Part shown: one piece after another, positions 1 through 13,525 of the stretch | Position numbering within the stretch: the stretch's first letter is position 1 | Layout: every line of letters starts with the position of its first letter | DNA from: an uncultured virus (IMG/VR IMGVR_UViG_3300023202_000249) | Lineage: Duplodnaviria > Heunggongvirae > Uroviricota > Caudoviricetes | Length of the DNA stretch: 20,000 bases | Virus record (IMG/VR): IMGVR_UViG_3300023202_000249 | Direction: 5' to 3' (one strand) | Program-made: the position numbers and the translations under genes | The notes under the pieces: generated by a model | Told to the model about the DNA's origin: nothing | Seen by the model: the letters and a program-made list of their open reading frames with translations, nothing else | The model's database searches: none

Positions 1-2
1 CC

Positions 3-680
3 AATGGCGATATACAAAAGATCGAGCGTCGTGGCCCAGGGAACCGCGTCGAAATCTTCGTCAACTCCGCGGGCATTATCGAGAGCATCGCTCGCGACCA
101 GCGCGTGGACTCCGAAGGACGTCCCTTGAACGTTCCGGACTTCAGAGATAATAATACGATCTCGCTTGGACCCGCACCCGATGATGACTCCGGGCCACTG
201 ATTTCGGTCCAGCCGTCAGGTCCTTCAAGGCAGTTGCCGAAAGCCGAGATCGTTACACTTCCTCAGATCATGTCATCGACTGGTGACCGGCCATTCATGG
301 TCACCCAAGAAGAGTTTTCTCCAGTCAAAGAGCAGGCCAGGGCCGATATCGTTCAGATCAGCCAGGCGCCGAACGCCAAGCAGGCGGCCGATATCCTGAC
401 CGCGCCGCGGCCGGCGACTGAGCCAAAGCCTTGGATGACGCTTGATCAGCTGTCACAAATCGCCTTCACCGTTTATAGGCATTGGAGCGACAACGAAAAG
501 CGAGAACTCATCAAGGAATTGCAACAGAAGCAGGCGATGGGGCAGCGTATTCGTTTTCCGCGGAACGTACAAATCACGCAGCCCTCAAGGCTCAATCCGT
601 GGCTCATCGCAGGCGCGGGACTCGCGGTACTCGCGCTGGCGGGGACCGCCATAGCGGTTACGAAAAGGGGGAAAGCATGA
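3..680 (+). CDS. 5'-truncated hypothetical protein with PWMTxDQ domain and C-terminal TM anchor (putative virion membrane protein)
   Basis: Frame is open from position 3 (NGDIQKIERRG...), so the start lies upstream of the window. Ends PWLIAGAGLAVLALAGTAIAVTKRGKA (hydrophobic helix plus basic tail). Stop overlaps the next ATG (ATGA 677-680). Confidence 0.8.
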   Translation, partial: NGDIQKIERRGPGNRVEIFVNSAGIIESIARDQRVDSEGRPLNVPDFRDNNTISLGPAPDDDSGPLISVQPSGPSRQLPKAEIVTLPQIMSSTGDRPFMVTQEEFSPVKEQARADIVQISQAPNAKQAADILTAPRPATEPKPWMTLDQLSQIAFTVYRHWSDNEKRELIKELQQKQAMGQRIRFPRNVQITQPSRLNPWLIAGAGLAVLALAGTAIAVTKRGKA

Positions 681-1255
681 TTATTCGCCTAGGTGACTTT
701 CGAGACCCGATCACCGGTGAAGTGCGCAGCGACAGCGAACTGGAATCGATGGTTCGCGAAGCCATCAACCGCGAATACCAGTTGCAGCCCGTTGGGTCGG
801 ATACGCAGCAGGAACTTGAGGATCGCATCGTCGAGGTATTCAGCGAGCGATATGCTTGGAATTGGAACAAGAATACGCAGCCCGATGAGATTATTGGCGA
901 CGTGAACTTCCATCGCGTGGTATCCGAGATCTCGCCGCTCAGTCGCCGCAAGGTCTCTTTCCAGGACGTCACCGGCAAGACCGGCACGGACGAAAACCAG
1001 CCGCCAAAACCCGGCTACGTGAAAGCGCCGTGGATGACCGCCGATCAAATGATGCAATTGGTCGATAAAGTGCTCCCCTTCTTTAAAGAGGAGCAGCGTC
1101 AGGCCATGTCGCAGGAACTGCTTAAGCGCCAGCAGCAGAATAAACCCATTTGGGTTCCGGTGTCGGAGACGCAGGGACTTGCCAATGTCGGCGTTGGGTT
1201 CGGCGTGGGTGCGCTTTTGGTGGGCGGTATCGTTTGGTTCATGAGGAACAAGTAA
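677..1255 (+). CDS. Hypothetical protein with PWMTxDQ domain and C-terminal TM anchor
   Basis: ATG 677 in ATGA overlap, with purine-rich AAAAGGGGG upstream. C-terminus VGVGFGVGALLVGGIVWFMRNK. C-terminal part is paralogous to the preceding ORF. Confidence 0.8.
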   Translation: MIIRLGDFRDPITGEVRSDSELESMVREAINREYQLQPVGSDTQQELEDRIVEVFSERYAWNWNKNTQPDEIIGDVNFHRVVSEISPLSRRKVSFQDVTGKTGTDENQPPKPGYVKAPWMTADQMMQLVDKVLPFFKEEQRQAMSQELLKRQQQNKPIWVPVSETQGLANVGVGFGVGALLVGGIVWFMRNK

Positions 1256-1257
1256 CA

Positions 1258-10796: not shown

Positions 10797-12958
10797 GCGT
10801 TAGCATCGCATACCAAGGCAGATTCGGTAACCACATGTGCCAGTACGTGGCTGGGCGATTACTCGCCGAGGAGACGGGCAGGATATTGGTAACGCGGCCA
10901 AGTTCAAGCATGTCGCAAATTCTTGGTGTCGCGCCAACGCCGGGAAATTGCAATAAAATCTATTCGGGTGACCCAATTGTGATCACCGACATTCACAATG
11001 GTAAGGAACACTACGCCAAGGATGGATACGAAGTCGTTGCAAAGGCTATTAAGGATCATGGGAATACGGAAAGACCGATCCGCTTGCATGGGTATTTCAG
11101 CGACAAAGCAGTGCTCATGGATTGCTCTAAATTCTTTAATGTACCAAAGGTCGACGTCAACACCAAAGACCTCTGCATCCACGTGCGAATGATCGACTAC
11201 GCCGATTACCGAGGCGGCGTGATCGTCTCACCCGAATACTACTTAAATCAGATCAAAGAGATCATGGCCGACGAAGGATTCGACCAACTGCATATCGTGA
11301 GCGATGAGTGGTCTCACGATTACTACAAGCATTTCGATGAATGGAAGCCAGAAGTCCACGTGGGTGGCACGCCGGCTGAAGACTTCCACTTCATGCGGCA
11401 GTTCCGGCAACTGATCATTGGCAACAGCAGTTTCGCTTGGTGGGCGGCGTATCTGGGCCACGCGCATTTCCCCAGAGCCTTCGCCGGATGGTGCGGCGGA
11501 CCGCATCCGTGCAACTTGGCCTACCATCCGAAATTCCATCCCGTGGAAGGCGATTACTGGGAAGGGCAAGTCGGATTCAAAGCTGCTTGGGAGAAGGCCG
11601 ACAAGGCCCCTGGATGGTTCGAGATATCCGAGGCGCGAGCAGCGTACGAATGCGCCAAGAAGCTGCCTCCGCATGCGTCGATCCTGCAGGTGGGCGCGCA
11701 ACAAGGACGCGCTACGGTGCTGCTTGCGAACACCAATCGTAACGTGGTCGTGATCGACGATTTCCCGCTCGGGCCGGTACCGGGCTCGGACGCGGGGCGC
11801 GTCATTACCGATGAGGATAGGAAGACTTTCCGCGAGAATATAAAGGAGTACGAAGGTAAAGTACACTGGATAGATAAGCCGCTCGGGGAGGTTCTATACG
11901 ATATCTCGTCGCCTTGGTTTTACATGGCATATATCGACGTCTTTCATGACGAAGGGCGAGCGCTGCGAACGTACGAGCACATCAAGCCGTACTTGGCTCC
12001 CGGCGCGTGGGTGCTCTGGCATGATTATCAGGTGTGCTATCCTTCCGTGATCGATGCGGTGGATGCACTGGTCGCGAAAGGCGAGATTGAGAAGGTCAAG
12101 GTCGTTCGGACGGTGGCGGTGACAAAGCGATGCGCCATGGATGAAATCCAAAGGGATTCTGCCGATGAAGCAGATCGGCAAAAAATTGAAACAAAAGACA
12201 CTGAGCCTGAGGCTCCGCGCGCATACTCTGCCGGCTCTCATACCATTCATGAATACCTGCCAGCCAAGTCCGAGGATGATCCTGCTTGGACGTTCCTTAC
12301 GATGTCCAAAGGACGCAACCATCACCTTGAACGATCGCTTCCTTCGATGCTGAAGCAGGACAATTGCGAGGTATTACTGATCGATTACGACTGCCCGGAT
12401 AATGCGTCTCAGTTGGGTCTTAAATTAGCCGTCGGCGTCAATCACGCGAGACTCAAATGCATCCAATTCCATGATCGCCCCGAGTTCTTCATGCCCGAGA
12501 TCATCAACACGGGCTTCGCGCATGCGCGAAGCGAATGGGTTTTCATTCTAGGGTGCGACATGATTTTGAAGCCGGATTTCATGGAATTTGTAATGGCAGC
12601 CATGAAAGACCGTCATTATGTGGATTTTGACACAGGCAAGAAGCCTAACGGCCTGCCGCTTTCCAAAGTCGGATACTACGGTGCCTTTGGCGTCCAAAGA
12701 TCTGTATTTCACGAAGTCGGGGGCTACGACGAGGATCTTAAGGGCTACGGCTACGCCGACACCGATTTCAAAACCAGAATGCACGAGCACGGCGTCCAAC
12801 GCGTGACGATCCCTGAATCATGCGCTGATCACATAGATCATGACAAGGATGACCGTGTCCGGTTTTATTCGGAGAAGGCAGGCAATACTTCTTTTGAGCG
12901 GAACGTTCAGATCAGCCAGAAGAAGGCCGAGAAGAGGCGCGCGAGAAAGGGTTTGTGA
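10793..12958 (+). CDS. Three-domain fusion: GT11-like glycosyltransferase, class I SAM methyltransferase (Methyltransf_24-like), GT2/GT7-like glycosyltransferase
   Basis: GT11: GRFGNHMCQY, IHVRMIDY, NSSFAWWAAYLG. MTase: GWF, ILQVGAQQGRAT, YIDVFH, LAPGAWVLWHDY. GT-A: LIDYDCPD, GGYDEDLKGYGYADTDF. Confidence 0.87.
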   Translation: MSVSIAYQGRFGNHMCQYVAGRLLAEETGRILVTRPSSSMSQILGVAPTPGNCNKIYSGDPIVITDIHNGKEHYAKDGYEVVAKAIKDHGNTERPIRLHGYFSDKAVLMDCSKFFNVPKVDVNTKDLCIHVRMIDYADYRGGVIVSPEYYLNQIKEIMADEGFDQLHIVSDEWSHDYYKHFDEWKPEVHVGGTPAEDFHFMRQFRQLIIGNSSFAWWAAYLGHAHFPRAFAGWCGGPHPCNLAYHPKFHPVEGDYWEGQVGFKAAWEKADKAPGWFEISEARAAYECAKKLPPHASILQVGAQQGRATVLLANTNRNVVVIDDFPLGPVPGSDAGRVITDEDRKTFRENIKEYEGKVHWIDKPLGEVLYDISSPWFYMAYIDVFHDEGRALRTYEHIKPYLAPGAWVLWHDYQVCYPSVIDAVDALVAKGEIEKVKVVRTVAVTKRCAMDEIQRDSADEADRQKIETKDTEPEAPRAYSAGSHTIHEYLPAKSEDDPAWTFLTMSKGRNHHLERSLPSMLKQDNCEVLLIDYDCPDNASQLGLKLAVGVNHARLKCIQFHDRPEFFMPEIINTGFAHARSEWVFILGCDMILKPDFMEFVMAAMKDRHYVDFDTGKKPNGLPLSKVGYYGAFGVQRSVFHEVGGYDEDLKGYGYADTDFKTRMHEHGVQRVTIPESCADHIDHDKDDRVRFYSEKAGNTSFERNVQISQKKAEKRRARKGL

Positions 12959-12961
12959 TCC

Positions 12962-13525
12962 ATGCTAAAGCGATTTTATGCAGGCGAGGAAGGTTTGCTG
13001 CAAATAAACAAGTCCGACTTGATCGACCATCCCAAATCACCGTCTGCGGTACAGGTGCCGCATCGCATCGTCCGAAATATCCTGATCGATGGCCAGTACA
13101 TTGAAGTCGGACCCTTCGTGAATATCTATGGTTGCACGATCGGTGACCAGACGCGCATCGGCGCATTCGTCGAGATCCAAGACGGCGTAATGATCGGCTC
13201 CAAGTGCAAGATCAGTGGCCACACCTTCGTCTGTAGCGGCGTGATCATCGAGCCACGGGTCTTTGTTGGTCATCACGTATGCTTCATCAACGACAAGTAT
13301 CCGAAGGCGACCACTTCAGATGGCAGTCTGAAGCGCTCATCCGATTACGACCAGCTTGAGACTGTAGTCAAAGAGGGAGCGTCGATTGGTAGTGGCGCGG
13401 TCATCATGGGCGGCATAACCATCGGCGAAGACGCTACCGTGGGCGCCGGAGCGATCGTCGCCAAGGATGTTCCTTCGGGCGCTAAAGTAGTTGGTCGACA
13501 AGCTGAGGTGAAAGATGAAGGGTAA
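12962..13525 (+). CDS. Hexapeptide-repeat sugar N-acetyltransferase (WbpD/FdtC/QdtC-like)
   Basis: CTIGDQTRIGAFVEIQ..VMIGSKCKISGHTFVCSGV, FINDKYP, GASIGSGAVI..ITIGEDATVGAGAIVAKDVP. Confidence 0.92.
   Translation: MLKRFYAGEEGLLQINKSDLIDHPKSPSAVQVPHRIVRNILIDGQYIEVGPFVNIYGCTIGDQTRIGAFVEIQDGVMIGSKCKISGHTFVCSGVIIEPRVFVGHHVCFINDKYPKATTSDGSLKRSSDYDQLETVVKEGASIGSGAVIMGGITIGEDATVGAGAIVAKDVPSGAKVVGRQAEVKDEG

Follow-up and report, generated by a model that had tools for sequence, protein, structure and literature searches.

The stretch of DNA analysed here (20,000 nt, hereafter the window) carries on its plus strand eight genes of membrane or virion type (o1-o8, 1-4535), followed on the same strand by a fibre gene (o9) and a glycan operon (o10-o17). 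Its proteins were located on a contig of 76,917 nt. In contigs of one study, possibly representing the source runs, read depth is flat at ~127x across the whole window in run X1; in the contigs of runs X2 and X3 it is ~7x, and in those of X4 ~1x. Window genes overlap and have Shine-Dalgarno-like leaders, which points to a prokaryotic host.

Transmembrane (TM) segments were called in the eight ORFs of 1-4535 by Kyte-Doolittle hydropathy (KD, 19-residue window). Four of them possess a clear single TM, and three of these four are tail-anchored, with the TM and a Lys/Arg tail at the C-terminus and no signal peptide: o1 (<3..680; KD 2.28; at least 225 aa, 5'-truncated by the window edge), o2 (677..1255; 192 aa; KD 2.06) and o3 (1258..1440; 60 aa; KD 2.32; no family match in Pfam, PHROGs or NCBIfam). 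The C-terminal half of o1 is paralogous to o2 (BLASTP E 2e-7; A1 profile E 2e-15). The latter is an orphan, in which a helical N-domain and a Gln-rich helix pair precede the TM and the basic tail (AF2 pLDDT 77.8); structure searches with this model gave no significant fold match. The fourth protein, o6 (3338..3787; 149 aa; KD 2.45), has acidic residues and a predicted coiled coil after its TM and would, by layout only, be holin-like. Short N-terminal hydrophobic stretches are all that is found in o5 (2863..3345; 160 aa; KD 1.43; no family match) and in o7 (3774..4118; 114 aa; KD 1.22), which consists of a basic leader, a short hydrophobic helix and a small conserved domain (AF2 model unusable, pLDDT 42.5). 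The six small single-TM proteins with basic flanks of the preliminary description are thus four clear and two weak cases, the count of six being valid only if o5 and o7 are included, and the basic flanks apply to o1-o3 but not to o6.

No hydrophobic TM stretch was detected on the Kyte-Doolittle scale in o4 and o8. The soluble, Cys-containing o4 (1449..2861; 470 aa) has a conserved C-terminal Cys motif and three 76-aa repeats, which correspond to the 228-nt repeat family D2 (1622-2305); contig depth here is 308.6 as compared to ~127. The soluble, beta-rich o8 (4128..4535; 135 aa) resembles virion fibre or decoration domains, with an ESM Atlas feature score of 0.97 to unnamed viral clusters and a TM-score of 0.73-0.78 to viral protein models.

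The fibre gene o9 (4546..6546; 666 aa) has a GC3 of 0.48, in contrast to 0.59-0.73 in o1-o8, and encodes a Peptidase_S74 domain (Pfam E 4e-15). A signal-peptide-like segment (KD 2.23) is followed by a fibre body with a 70-aa duplication, the S74 chaperone, a coiled coil, a C-terminal hydrophobic anchor (KD 1.66) and a basic tail. The signal peptide and membrane anchor that had been ascribed to this fibre are both present; however, S74 cleavage would take place ahead of the anchor, at the intact SDxxxK motif (residue 539 of 666, nt 6160). A pleolipovirus-type anchored spike was considered for o9 and rejected, because the anchor is located on the portion that S74 cleavage removes. The self-cleaving SDxxxK chaperone is common to o9, S74 phage tailspikes and fibres, Bdellovibrio MAT adhesins and MYRF. 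In contrast to S74 phage fibres, o9 has a hydrophobic anchor added after the chaperone, a layout that we take to be that of MYRF. Matches to tail fibres of tailed phages were found in 108 of 50,697 phage records, and all three tailed-phage homologues checked have neither signal peptide nor anchor. The signal peptide is as in the MAT proteins of Bdellovibrio, in which signal-peptide-bearing S74 fibres are described as cell-surface adhesins (PMC10769870).

The operon had been placed directly downstream of the fibre, and its genes are indeed the next ones after o9, except that a 238-nt gap (6547..6784) lies between, an arrangement resembling that of a moron. The gap contains a TTGACA hexamer near 6724 and no consensus -10, and is not among the sites of a promoter scan (17 sites, with 14.4 to be expected at random). 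From 6785 to 13874 the genes overlap or are closely spaced. The first two encode an 81-aa protein with no family match in Pfam, PHROGs or NCBIfam (o10, 6785..7030) and a DUF3431 protein (o11, 7024..7722; Pfam E 1.2e-13). They are followed by a DegT/DnrJ PLP-dependent sugar aminotransferase with EDAA, S-x-H-x-x-K and GEGG motifs (o12, 7882..9039; Pfam E 8.5e-58; PDB 8VR3 E 2e-31), a UDP-glucose 4-epimerase-like, NAD-dependent sugar epimerase/dehydratase with GxxGxxG and YxxxK (o13, 9066..10007; Pfam E 1.5e-27), and a PAPS-dependent sulfotransferase (Sulfotransfer_1/3; o14, 10035..10796; Pfam E 9e-12), whose closest solved relative is a heparan sulfate 3-O-sulfotransferase (HS-3-OST; PDB 1T8T, E 4.6e-9). 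Further downstream lie a 721-aa fusion of GT11, Methyltransf_24 and GT2/GT7C (Pfam; o15, 10793..12958), with G-C-D in the GT2 part where DxD is expected, and a hexapeptide acetyltransferase (Hexapep in Pfam) of QdtC/FdtC(WxcM)/WlbB sugar N-acetyltransferase type (o16, 12962..13525), which has an NDKYP motif and matches PDB 7S43, 4MZU, 3MQG and 3FS8 (E 3e-20 to 7e-14). A RusA-like nuclease gene (o17, 13515..13874; phrog_34 E 1.3e-6) overlaps the operon end. The hydropathy peak does not exceed 1.52 in any of the eight proteins, which, together with the Pfam families matched, confirms an operon of soluble sugar-nucleotide, glycosyl-, sulfo-, methyl- and acetyltransferases. Since it contains no nucleotidyltransferase, PAPS synthase, flippase or oligosaccharyltransferase, the operon tailors and transfers sugars without synthesizing them de novo.

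Much of this enzyme repertoire (GT11, GT2, epimerase, DegT-type aminotransferase, acetyl- and methyltransferases) is shared with glycan clusters of tailed phages (cyanophages S-SCSM2R, S-SCSM1 and P-SSM2; podovirus MW202713) and of the unclassified megaphage LR756504. Such clusters in tailed phages have been interpreted as serving to modify the host surface, DNA or the virion, and their carriers are mostly head-tail viruses, unlike the virus proposed here. Among 50,697 phage records, no match was obtained for the HS-3-OST-like sulfotransferase, the DUF3431 protein or the three-domain fusion, of which only the GT11 part was matched (2 records).

On the minus strand, the window encodes a tyrosine recombinase/integrase with a Cys-rich insertion (17130..17975; Pfam PF00589 E 2.4e-18; also PHROGs; XerC-like in NCBIfam, with a weak Zn-binding match at residues 92-128), from whose presence the element may be temperate. 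At E 0.01, 17 of the 28 window ORFs are without a Pfam match. Terminase, portal, HK97 capsid, tail tube and sheath were matched by none of 28 ORFs in Pfam and PHROGs and by none of 27 in NCBIfam, in agreement with the earlier statement that no head-tail hallmark gene is recognisable. Neither does any window ORF match a jelly-roll capsid or an A32/FtsK ATPase in the three databases, and these two and a Cys protease were found neither in the window nor in the relatives L001-L003. Because the reading covered 20 of the ~77 kb of the window's contig and 20.6 of the 89.3 kb of the L001 contig, the absence of head-tail genes is local.

The o2 protein is a lineage marker. Its family comprises 27 matches among 1.84 billion representatives, of which 26 were kept and one, a Vibrio repeat protein, was dropped; members lie on contigs of up to 63-92 kb. 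The C-terminal TM (KD >=1.6) is kept in 28 of 30 family sequences, and Leu/Met-Gly occurs in residues 2-15 of 16 of the 30, as compared to 2.6 expected; the rows are related and thus not independent of each other. A strict hydrophobic-x-Gly-Leu/Met-Gly tag is present in 0/8 window proteins and 2/16 L001 proteins. The preliminary description had named conserved genes of a cellular lineage as the contrary outcome; searches of 401 Planctomycetota genomes, of plasmids and of described phages yielded no family member, and a pattern search of GTDB genomes gave one weak match, unconfirmed by profile.

The relative L001, on a contig of 89.3 kb, possesses o1, o2, o4 and o7 in conserved order, these four of o1-o7 beating all 200 shuffles. 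The counterpart of o1 lies at 9239-9970 of L001 (score 102 vs shuffle maximum 52), o4 is homologous to 11345-13156 (C-terminal score 70, reached by 0/1000 shuffles), and o7 shares 41% identity over 105 aa with 15084-15500. The match of o6 to 14381-14614 is weak (score reached by 5/200 shuffles), and o3 is not alignable with its positional counterpart (154/200). In L001, seven consecutive genes with C-terminal TM and basic tail (7877-11119) sit among virion-type genes (YadA-head fibre, Gp80, tail-fibre domain); an overlapped small-gene/lipobox pair resembles spanins, and a beta-helix protein (17850-19904) has a signal-peptide-like N-terminus. Terminase, portal and tail tube found no match in L001's 20 kb, nor head-tail hallmarks among the 26-28 ORFs of L001 and L002. 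This synteny adds support to the view of a virus rich in membrane proteins and with no head-tail gene in sight, although neither capsid type is seen. The corresponding 20 kb of L001 lack the glycan operon and carry a different sulfotransferase, inside the virion block (score against o14 reached by 4/200 shuffles; no tblastn match). Because L001 keeps the block in order and the operon is missing, the membrane-protein block is, to judge from these sequences, core and the glycan operon accessory.

The window is probably part of the virion gene block of an uncultured, membrane-lined, tailless bacterial virus with a genome of 77 kb or more. The element is very probably viral; if so, it is quite likely both tailless and membrane-containing. 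No capsid or packaging gene was reached in the parts read, and the tailless status as such is inferred, as fairly likely. The best explanation, which we hold tentatively, is a late virion block with an accessory glycan-tailoring operon in a temperate-capable virus, which would most likely lack a tail, be icosahedral with its membrane inside and work in the manner of PRD1, PM2 or STIV. In its favour are the syntenic tail-anchored block, the integrase and RusA-like genes, the soluble nature of all glycan enzymes and the precedent of STIV. Against it counts that a signal-peptide-bearing fibre is difficult to reconcile with assembly of the virion entirely in the cytoplasm, that the fibre body and o8 resemble tailed-phage proteins, that jelly-roll capsid, A32/FtsK ATPase and Cys protease are unseen, that the 20 kb of L001 are devoid of the operon, and that the strict tag is lacking in the window and rare in L001.

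By analogy, the signal-peptide-less o1, o2 and o3 and their upstream neighbours would insert into the host inner membrane via their C-terminal helix, and their N-domains, left in the cytoplasm, would gather capsid proteins at a patch of membrane destined to become the viral vesicle; o4 and o8 would be soluble outer or vertex proteins. The fibre would be exported by its signal peptide, trimerise with its C-terminal anchor as a tether and, following known S74 chemistry at its intact motif, cleave itself at Ser539, so that chaperone and anchor stay behind. The soluble operon would draw on host NDP-sugars: an N-acetylated amino sugar would be made by the epimerase/dehydratase, DegT and the QdtC/FdtC-like acetyltransferase, probably at C3, GT11 and GT2 would transfer sugars, and O-methylation and sulfation would take place in the cytoplasm, as the enzyme families suggest. 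The most likely acceptor would be a cytoplasm-assembled virion protein (capsid or outer proteins) and not the exported fibre, on which the operon cannot act after export. A swappable set of sugar-modifying enzymes may in this way coat the particle. For the virion as acceptor the chances are slightly better than even, and between virion glycosylation and host-surface modification they are about equal; a virion decorated with sulfated glycan, as first proposed, is unproven.

Alternatively, the same membrane virus might use the operon as a lysogenic-conversion or host-remodelling module that alters, in the cytoplasm, the NDP-sugars of the host and its surface glycans (O-antigen, EPS or flagellin), with receptor change or superinfection block as a consequence, and the exported fibre may be a host-surface adhesin. 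QdtC/FdtC-type acetyltransferases, to which the structure matches of o16 point, are O-antigen/S-layer enzymes. The accessory nature of the operon, the gap that precedes it and the integrase favour such a module, as do the 22 such genes of cyanophage S-SCSM2R, interpreted as host cell-wall modification (PMC12801897), and the surface adhesins of Bdellovibrio (PMC10769870). We nevertheless regard it as possible but unlikely: membrane-bound conversion genes (GtrABC-type, Wzy, membrane acyltransferase) are absent from the 28 ORFs, the gap has no consensus promoter, operon and virion block are collinear, a RusA-like gene forms the operon end, and the virion block of L001 also contains a sulfotransferase. 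Hypermodification of viral DNA against restriction, with sugar, amino sugar or sulfate on bases, is very improbable, because GT11 and HS-3-OST-like enzymes have glycans as substrates and no base-activating partner (thymidylate-synthase-like hydroxymethylase, TET/JBP dioxygenase or nucleotide kinase) occurs among the 28 ORFs. In its favour are the nuclease gene at the operon end and DNA being a frequent target of phage glycosyltransferases (PMC12619734).

An ordinary, podovirus-like tailed phage, with head-tail genes outside both 20-kb windows or too diverged and with TM proteins serving in ejection, in lysis or as morons, would account for the tail-fibre matches of o9, for the mostly Uroviricota-labelled Atlas neighbours of o8 and o2 (o2 scores <0.9, leads only) and for the 77-92 kb, a usual size among Caudoviricetes. 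The tailed phage MW202713 has a glycosyltransferase, a methyltransferase and DegT beside its terminase, and the 636-kb LR756504 has GT10, GT11, acetyltransferase and DegT. We consider such a phage improbable, given that tube, sheath, baseplate, tape-measure, portal and capsid are unmatched at their usual places and that the tailed-phage homologues of the fibre are devoid of its signal peptide and anchor. We know of no tailed-phage layout with seven consecutive tail-anchored genes between fibre genes. A weak further point is that 8 of 8 scans of viral_contigs, a subset, detected no member of the o2 family, yet JGI contigs of 77-90 kb have it. The lack of a visible capsid, the signal-peptide fibre and the similar N-terminus of the L001 beta-helix protein would also suit an enveloped, budding or extruded particle without icosahedral shell (pleolipovirus-, plasmavirus- or vesicle-element-like), its envelope formed by the TM proteins and displaying the fibres. 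The o9 anchor beyond the cut site, however, and the spanin-like pair of L001, which suggests lysis of a two-membrane host, render it improbable, and known pleolipoviruses are archaeal and far smaller. There is little to commend a non-viral plasmid, island or chromosome stretch with surface-protein sorting and a cellular glycosylation locus: cells commonly encode ankyrin, trypsin-like proteases and sugar enzymes, there are counterparts of the S74 fibre in cells, and no capsid is seen, but CTERM/sortase-type models found no match among 27 window ORFs (NCBIfam), o1-o3 have no signal peptides, most ORFs are Pfam-less, no housekeeping gene was found in the window or in L001, and the genomes and plasmids searched yielded no o2 family.

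With regard to the proposed internal-membrane virus, PM2 and PRD1 genomes measure ~10-15 kb, and PRD1 spikes have, to our knowledge, neither signal peptide nor S74. Runs of small membrane proteins as in the window are found in PRD1, PM2 and the metagenomic DJR groups of Yutin et al. 2018; in Tectiviridae (PRD1)/Corticoviridae (PM2)-type viruses they are described as marking the host inner-membrane patch that is the assembly scaffold (PMC6356626), and the Odin group is reported to have a sporadic glycosyl transferase and integrase (PMC5894146). In contrast to the contigs of 77-92 kb, described bacterial DJR members are small (7-11 kb, PMC11531552; FLiP group up to 17 kb), and no homology of window proteins to Tectiviridae, Corticoviridae or metagenomic DJR groups was detected. 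The virus proposed here would resemble Turriviridae (STIV1) in its internal membrane, C-terminally anchored membrane protein and virus-encoded glycosyltransferase. For STIV, a glycosylated capsid protein and the C-terminally anchored membrane protein A55 are reported, together with a virus-encoded GT-A enzyme (A197) that is essential and presumably works in the cytoplasm with donors from the host (PMC10551542), and genomes of the STIV group often have tyrosine integrases and resolvases (PMC5894146). STIV1 differs in its archaeal host, its 17.7-kb genome and its single glycosyltransferase without a sugar-tailoring operon; no sequence or fold match links it to window proteins, and DJR capsid and A32 ATPase are not seen in the window. 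Polinton-like viruses are tailless with glycosyltransferases (in 289 genomes, with sulfotransferases in 3; bioRxiv 10.64898/2026.05.28.728513), yet they have eukaryotic hosts and small genomes, whereas the window points to a prokaryotic host. Capsid and tail glycosylation is cited for mycobacteriophages (PMC12619734). Glycan clusters in tailed phages, and in archaea a membrane virus with its own glycosyltransferase (STIV), are already known; new are the orphan tail-anchored family headed by o2 and the syntenic membrane block on the 89-kb contig of a relative.

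The membrane-protein block that carries o2, a tail-anchored orphan protein of 192 aa, is a real marker of an undescribed lineage, and its genes as well as the glycan operon downstream are genuine. On the + strand 17 main genes extend from the left edge of the window to 13874, and on the - strand 11 extend from the right edge to 14169; because they nearly touch or overlap and many have Shine-Dalgarno-like leaders, a prokaryotic host is indicated. Seventeen of the 28 window ORFs have no Pfam match at E 0.01, no tRNA was found in the window, and promoter and terminator scans of it remained at chance level. 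Read depth, taken from contigs of one study whose runs are possibly the source, is flat across the window (~127x in one run, ~7x in two and ~1x in a fourth), and the membrane block therefore behaves as a single molecule with the glycan genes. In the same depth data a contig reaches past the window by 4,653 nt on the upstream side, and a 76,917-nt contig is listed as carrying the window's own o2, o7, fibre and integrase proteins. We consider it highly probable that the element is viral.

The preliminary description had counted six single-TM proteins in the block (o1-o8, 3-4535). By hydropathy o1, o2, o3 and o6 clearly belong to this type, while o5 and o7 possess short hydrophobic leaders only; o4 and o8 are soluble, and o1 and o2 are paralogous. 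The virion block thus contains an array of virus-encoded membrane proteins, which is a trait of PRD1-, PM2- and STIV-like viruses (Bamfordvirae, DJR). A CTERM protein-sorting system was rejected, given that no CTERM model (exosortase, rhombosortase or sortase sorting) matched any of 27 ORFs and that o2 and o3 lack signal peptides. Within o4, 1622-2305 comprises three tandem 228-nt copies, two identical and the third at 67%, each unit encoding 76 aa with two Cys; the contig depth of 308.6 over this stretch, versus ~127, supports that the repeat is real.

Three relative stretches (L001-L003), out of 153 candidate metagenome stretches, were recovered with P0007, a protein relative of o2. L001 (20.6 kb) comes from near one end of an 89,331-nt contig. 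Its counterparts of o1, o2, o4 and o7 preserve the gene order of the window and individually beat all 200 shuffles; o6 gives a borderline alignment, and no alignment was obtained between o3, o5 or o8 and the L001 genes at their positions. The o4 counterpart shares the C-terminal motif, but its Cys-rich repeats, with 26 Cys in the 603 aa, are not those of o4; the Cys-rich protein of L001 has no match in 50,697 phage records. Seven consecutive L001 genes (7877-11119) end in a TM segment and a basic tail; this array is flanked by a YadA-head fibre, a Gp80-type protein and a tail-fibre domain, and a beta-helix protein that begins with a signal-peptide-like segment is likewise present. The sole gene of the glycan set in L001 is a sulfotransferase shortly downstream of the o7 homologue, which belongs to another family (phrog_27463) and whose score against the window's sulfotransferase o14 was reached by 4 of 200 shuffles. 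L002, a near-identical strain, diverges from L001 downstream of this sulfotransferase, which identifies the end of the virion block as a variable region; we therefore regard the membrane array as the core, and fibres and glycan genes as exchangeable. The different gene set that follows the sulfotransferase in L002 (8172-11404) includes a DUF7178 protein. At 7186-7603 of L001 a small gene overlaps that of a lipobox protein in an i-/o-spanin-like layout, which suggests a spanin pair and, with it, a two-membrane host and lytic exit.

A search of 1.84 billion representatives with o2 yielded 27 proteins, of which 26 were kept; the one excluded, P0020 (Vibrio tandem large repeat), had a low score and was judged a repeat match. 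None of the relatives examined is informatively named or assigned to a Pfam family. The 26 proteins, o2 itself and three added relatives make up 30 family rows, and 28 of these have a TM segment near the C-terminus followed by Lys/Arg. Leu/Met-Gly occurs within the first 15 residues in 16 of the 30 rows (2.6 expected) and Gly-Leu/Met-Gly outside the TM segment in eight (2.2 expected), both counts coming from rows that are related to each other. The strict hydrophobic-x-Gly-Leu/Met-Gly tag is found in four rows (0.7 expected), has two matches in 16 L001 proteins (0.84 expected) and is absent from the eight window proteins: Leu-Gly leaders are enriched in the o2 family and degenerate in the window itself. 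The family is also modular, as P0008, P0012, P0015 and P0028 have the N-terminal helical domain in two copies, and P0010, P0011 and P0021-P0027 include short forms without the Gln-rich part. Its members occur on contigs of which the longest measure 63.4, 69.5, 76.7, 89.3, 90.1 and 91.6 kb. The structural model of o2 has no Foldseek match at E 0.001 or better in BFVD, and its best match in the PDB (Z 5.4) neither names nor excludes a fold; an ESM Atlas look-up of o2 gave scores under 0.9, and the o7 model was too poor for structure search. No match was found in viral_contigs for the window DNA, o2, P0007, the alignments A3, A4, A6 and A7 or a degenerate motif, nor for o2 in 50,697 described-phage records or in plasmids, and none of 401 Planctomycetota genomes matches. 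This absence from viral_contigs, phages, plasmids and the searched genomes argues mildly against a cellular locus and against a well-marked tailed phage. The sole match among 36 genome candidates, 28 aa in a Planctomycetaceae MAG, was discarded as chance, since the full profile finds nothing there.

The type of particle has to be judged from part of the genome. No jelly-roll capsid protein was recognised in the window or L001-L003, and no A32/FtsK-HerA packaging ATPase in the stretches read, about a quarter of each contig; the capsid and packaging genes would lie beyond the window and L001, as does the head of the membrane-protein block. Likewise, terminase, portal, HK97 capsid and tail proteins (PHROGs) were recognised in none of the 28 window ORFs and none of the 28 ORFs of L001/L002, apart from fibre, decoration and weak tail-assembly matches, and among the L001 ORFs none scored as terminase, portal, capsid, tube, sheath or packaging ATPase. 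The earlier statement that no head-tail hallmark is recognisable therefore holds for the 28 window ORFs, that is, within 20 of ~77 kb. Known Pleolipoviridae have archaeal hosts and small genomes; contigs of 77-92 kb and the L001 lipobox protein point away from them. Overall, we regard a tailless and membrane-containing virus as probable.

The fibre gene o9 (4546-6546) encodes a signal-peptide-like start, a fibre body, a Peptidase_S74 domain (Pfam E 4e-15) and a terminal hydrophobic segment. Its body is tail-fibre-like, finding 108 of the 50,697 phage records with no match that spans more than 80% of the length of o9, and the S74 domain follows this body as in S74 chaperone fibres. All three tailed-phage homologues compared lack signal peptide and anchor, in contrast to o9, which has both. 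The SDxxxK motif is intact at residue 539, and PMC10769870 describes the same serine as the self-cleavage site in Bdellovibrio MAT fibres. This changes the picture of an anchored, pleolipovirus-type spike: the anchor sits on a 128-aa fragment beyond the intact motif, cleavage is predicted, and since the cut site lies upstream of the anchor, chaperone and anchor should leave the mature fibre. A 210-nt duplication lies inside o9 (5685-6110, 78-86% identical), and the GC3 of the gene (0.48) is below that of o1-o8, as if o9 had recently been swapped in.

The soluble glycan operon (o10-o17, 6785-13874) was correctly recognised at the outset, with genes and catalytic motifs present and no enzyme having a TM segment. 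The sulfotransferase o14 is closest to heparan sulfate 3-O-sulfotransferase, and, as the exception among the motifs, the GT2 part of o15, a three-domain GT11-methyltransferase-GT2 fusion, has G-C-D where DxD is usual. The acetyltransferase o16 is closest to the WxcM/QdtC/WlbB group, whose members act on 3-amino sugars. Neither the o15 fusion nor o14 nor the DUF3431 protein o11 has a match in 50,697 phage records. A small Cys-rich ORF without Pfam match (7688-7879, +) overlaps the end of the DUF3431 gene and abuts DegT; its CxxC...CP..W layout is reminiscent of small phage Zn-binding proteins. The last glycan gene is overlapped at 13515-13874 (+) by a gene for a RusA-like nuclease, and the operon thereby passes directly into a gene of the recombination/packaging type.

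How these parts might work together can be outlined by analogy. The tail-anchored proteins would most likely mark a patch of the inner membrane with their N-domains in the cytoplasm; the fold of o2 has no named match. According to PMC6356626 and PMC10551542, respectively, PRD1 membrane proteins mark a membrane patch before capsid assembly and STIV A55 anchors the vertex. The receptor fibre would be matured by membrane-tethered S74 self-release. The glycan enzymes would be cytoplasmic and draw on NDP-sugars and PAPS of the host, and the predicted product is a sulfated, O-methylated N-acetyl-amino-sugar, which may form a polyanionic, heparan-like virion coat by a giant-virus-style pathway.

The window encodes no nucleotidyltransferase, PAPS synthase, flippase or OST; lacking the latter two, the enzymes should reach cytoplasm-facing acceptors and not the exported fibre. 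Such acceptors could be capsid or outer proteins, DNA, lipid-linked host precursors, or proteins before export. We rank a virion protein first, with slightly better than even chances, on account of the collinearity of the operon with the virion block, the sulfotransferase in the L001 block and the precedent of STIV. Editing of the host surface is a close rival. For modification of DNA, the window encodes no base-activating partner. That a tailless membrane virus also glycosylates its virion is a tentative reading, to which we give somewhat less than an even chance, and a 77-92-kb tailless internal-membrane bacterial lineage that builds its particle on at least a dozen tail-anchored proteins, with both a sulfated virion glycan and tethered S74 fibre release is, taken jointly, rather unlikely.

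Phage glycan clusters as such are known from tailed viruses. S-SCSM2R possesses 22 glycan genes, among them GT11, GT2 and epimerases, and homologues occur in S-SCSM1 and P-SSM2 (PMC12801897, including its Table 1); in one podovirus record GT, methyltransferase and DegT genes adjoin terminase. PMC12619734 and PMC11256854 cite virion glycosylation in mycobacteriophages. Among membrane-containing DJR viruses, STIV has a capsid that is glycosylated and encodes an essential GT itself (PMC10551542); a glycosyl transferase occurs sporadically in Odin-group DJR genomes (PMC5894146), and Polinton-like viruses have GTs and a few sulfotransferases (bioRxiv 10.64898/2026.05.28.728513). With 77-92 kb, the lineage is several times larger than described bacterial DJR phages (sizes and realm definitions following PMC11531552 and PMC10848233). 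In titles and abstract openings, our literature search found neither a large tailless bacterial virus carrying a comparable array nor a phage sulfotransferase-glycan operon, and 50,697 phage records likewise yielded no bacterial virus that combines this size with the array; supplements could list such genomes. Each ingredient has a precedent, but the combination of size, array and sulfated three-step tailoring has none as far as searched.

Should the capsid be a jelly roll, sizes of 77-92 kb would be established for bacterial Varidnaviria-like viruses, which marker-based virus catalogues would be missing, and o2 and o7 would provide sequence handles for collecting such viruses; with a capsid of HK97 type, the window would add no more than another phage glycan cluster, next to an unusual membrane-protein array. 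A sulfated virion glycan, if true, would extend virion glycosylation past the simple sugars on record for actinophages and STIV. It would also provide a small soluble enzyme set, with its HS-3-OST-like sulfotransferase and GT11-MT-GT2 fusion, that is directly assayable.

A further GT10-GT11-unknown-PglD-like acetyltransferase-DegT cluster lies at 11189-15964 of L006 (LR756504.1), an unannotated 636-kb phage record. On the - strand of the window, six consecutive orphan genes (14169-17254) without Pfam, PHROGs or NCBIfam match converge on the glycan operon, and r23 has no match among 50,697 phage records. The tyrosine recombinase at 17130-17975 (-) carries a CxxC...CxxC insertion and matches just one of 50,697 phage records, at 26% identity. 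The trypsin-like serine protease at 17972-18679 (-) begins with a hydrophobic stretch that closes with a lipobox-like Leu-Ala-Gly-Ser-Cys and is possibly an exported lipoprotein protease. An ankyrin-repeat gene with 99-nt units (19304-20000, -) continues past the right edge; at 19803-19813 four letters differ in three runs, where repeat copies may have been aligned to the wrong ankyrin unit.
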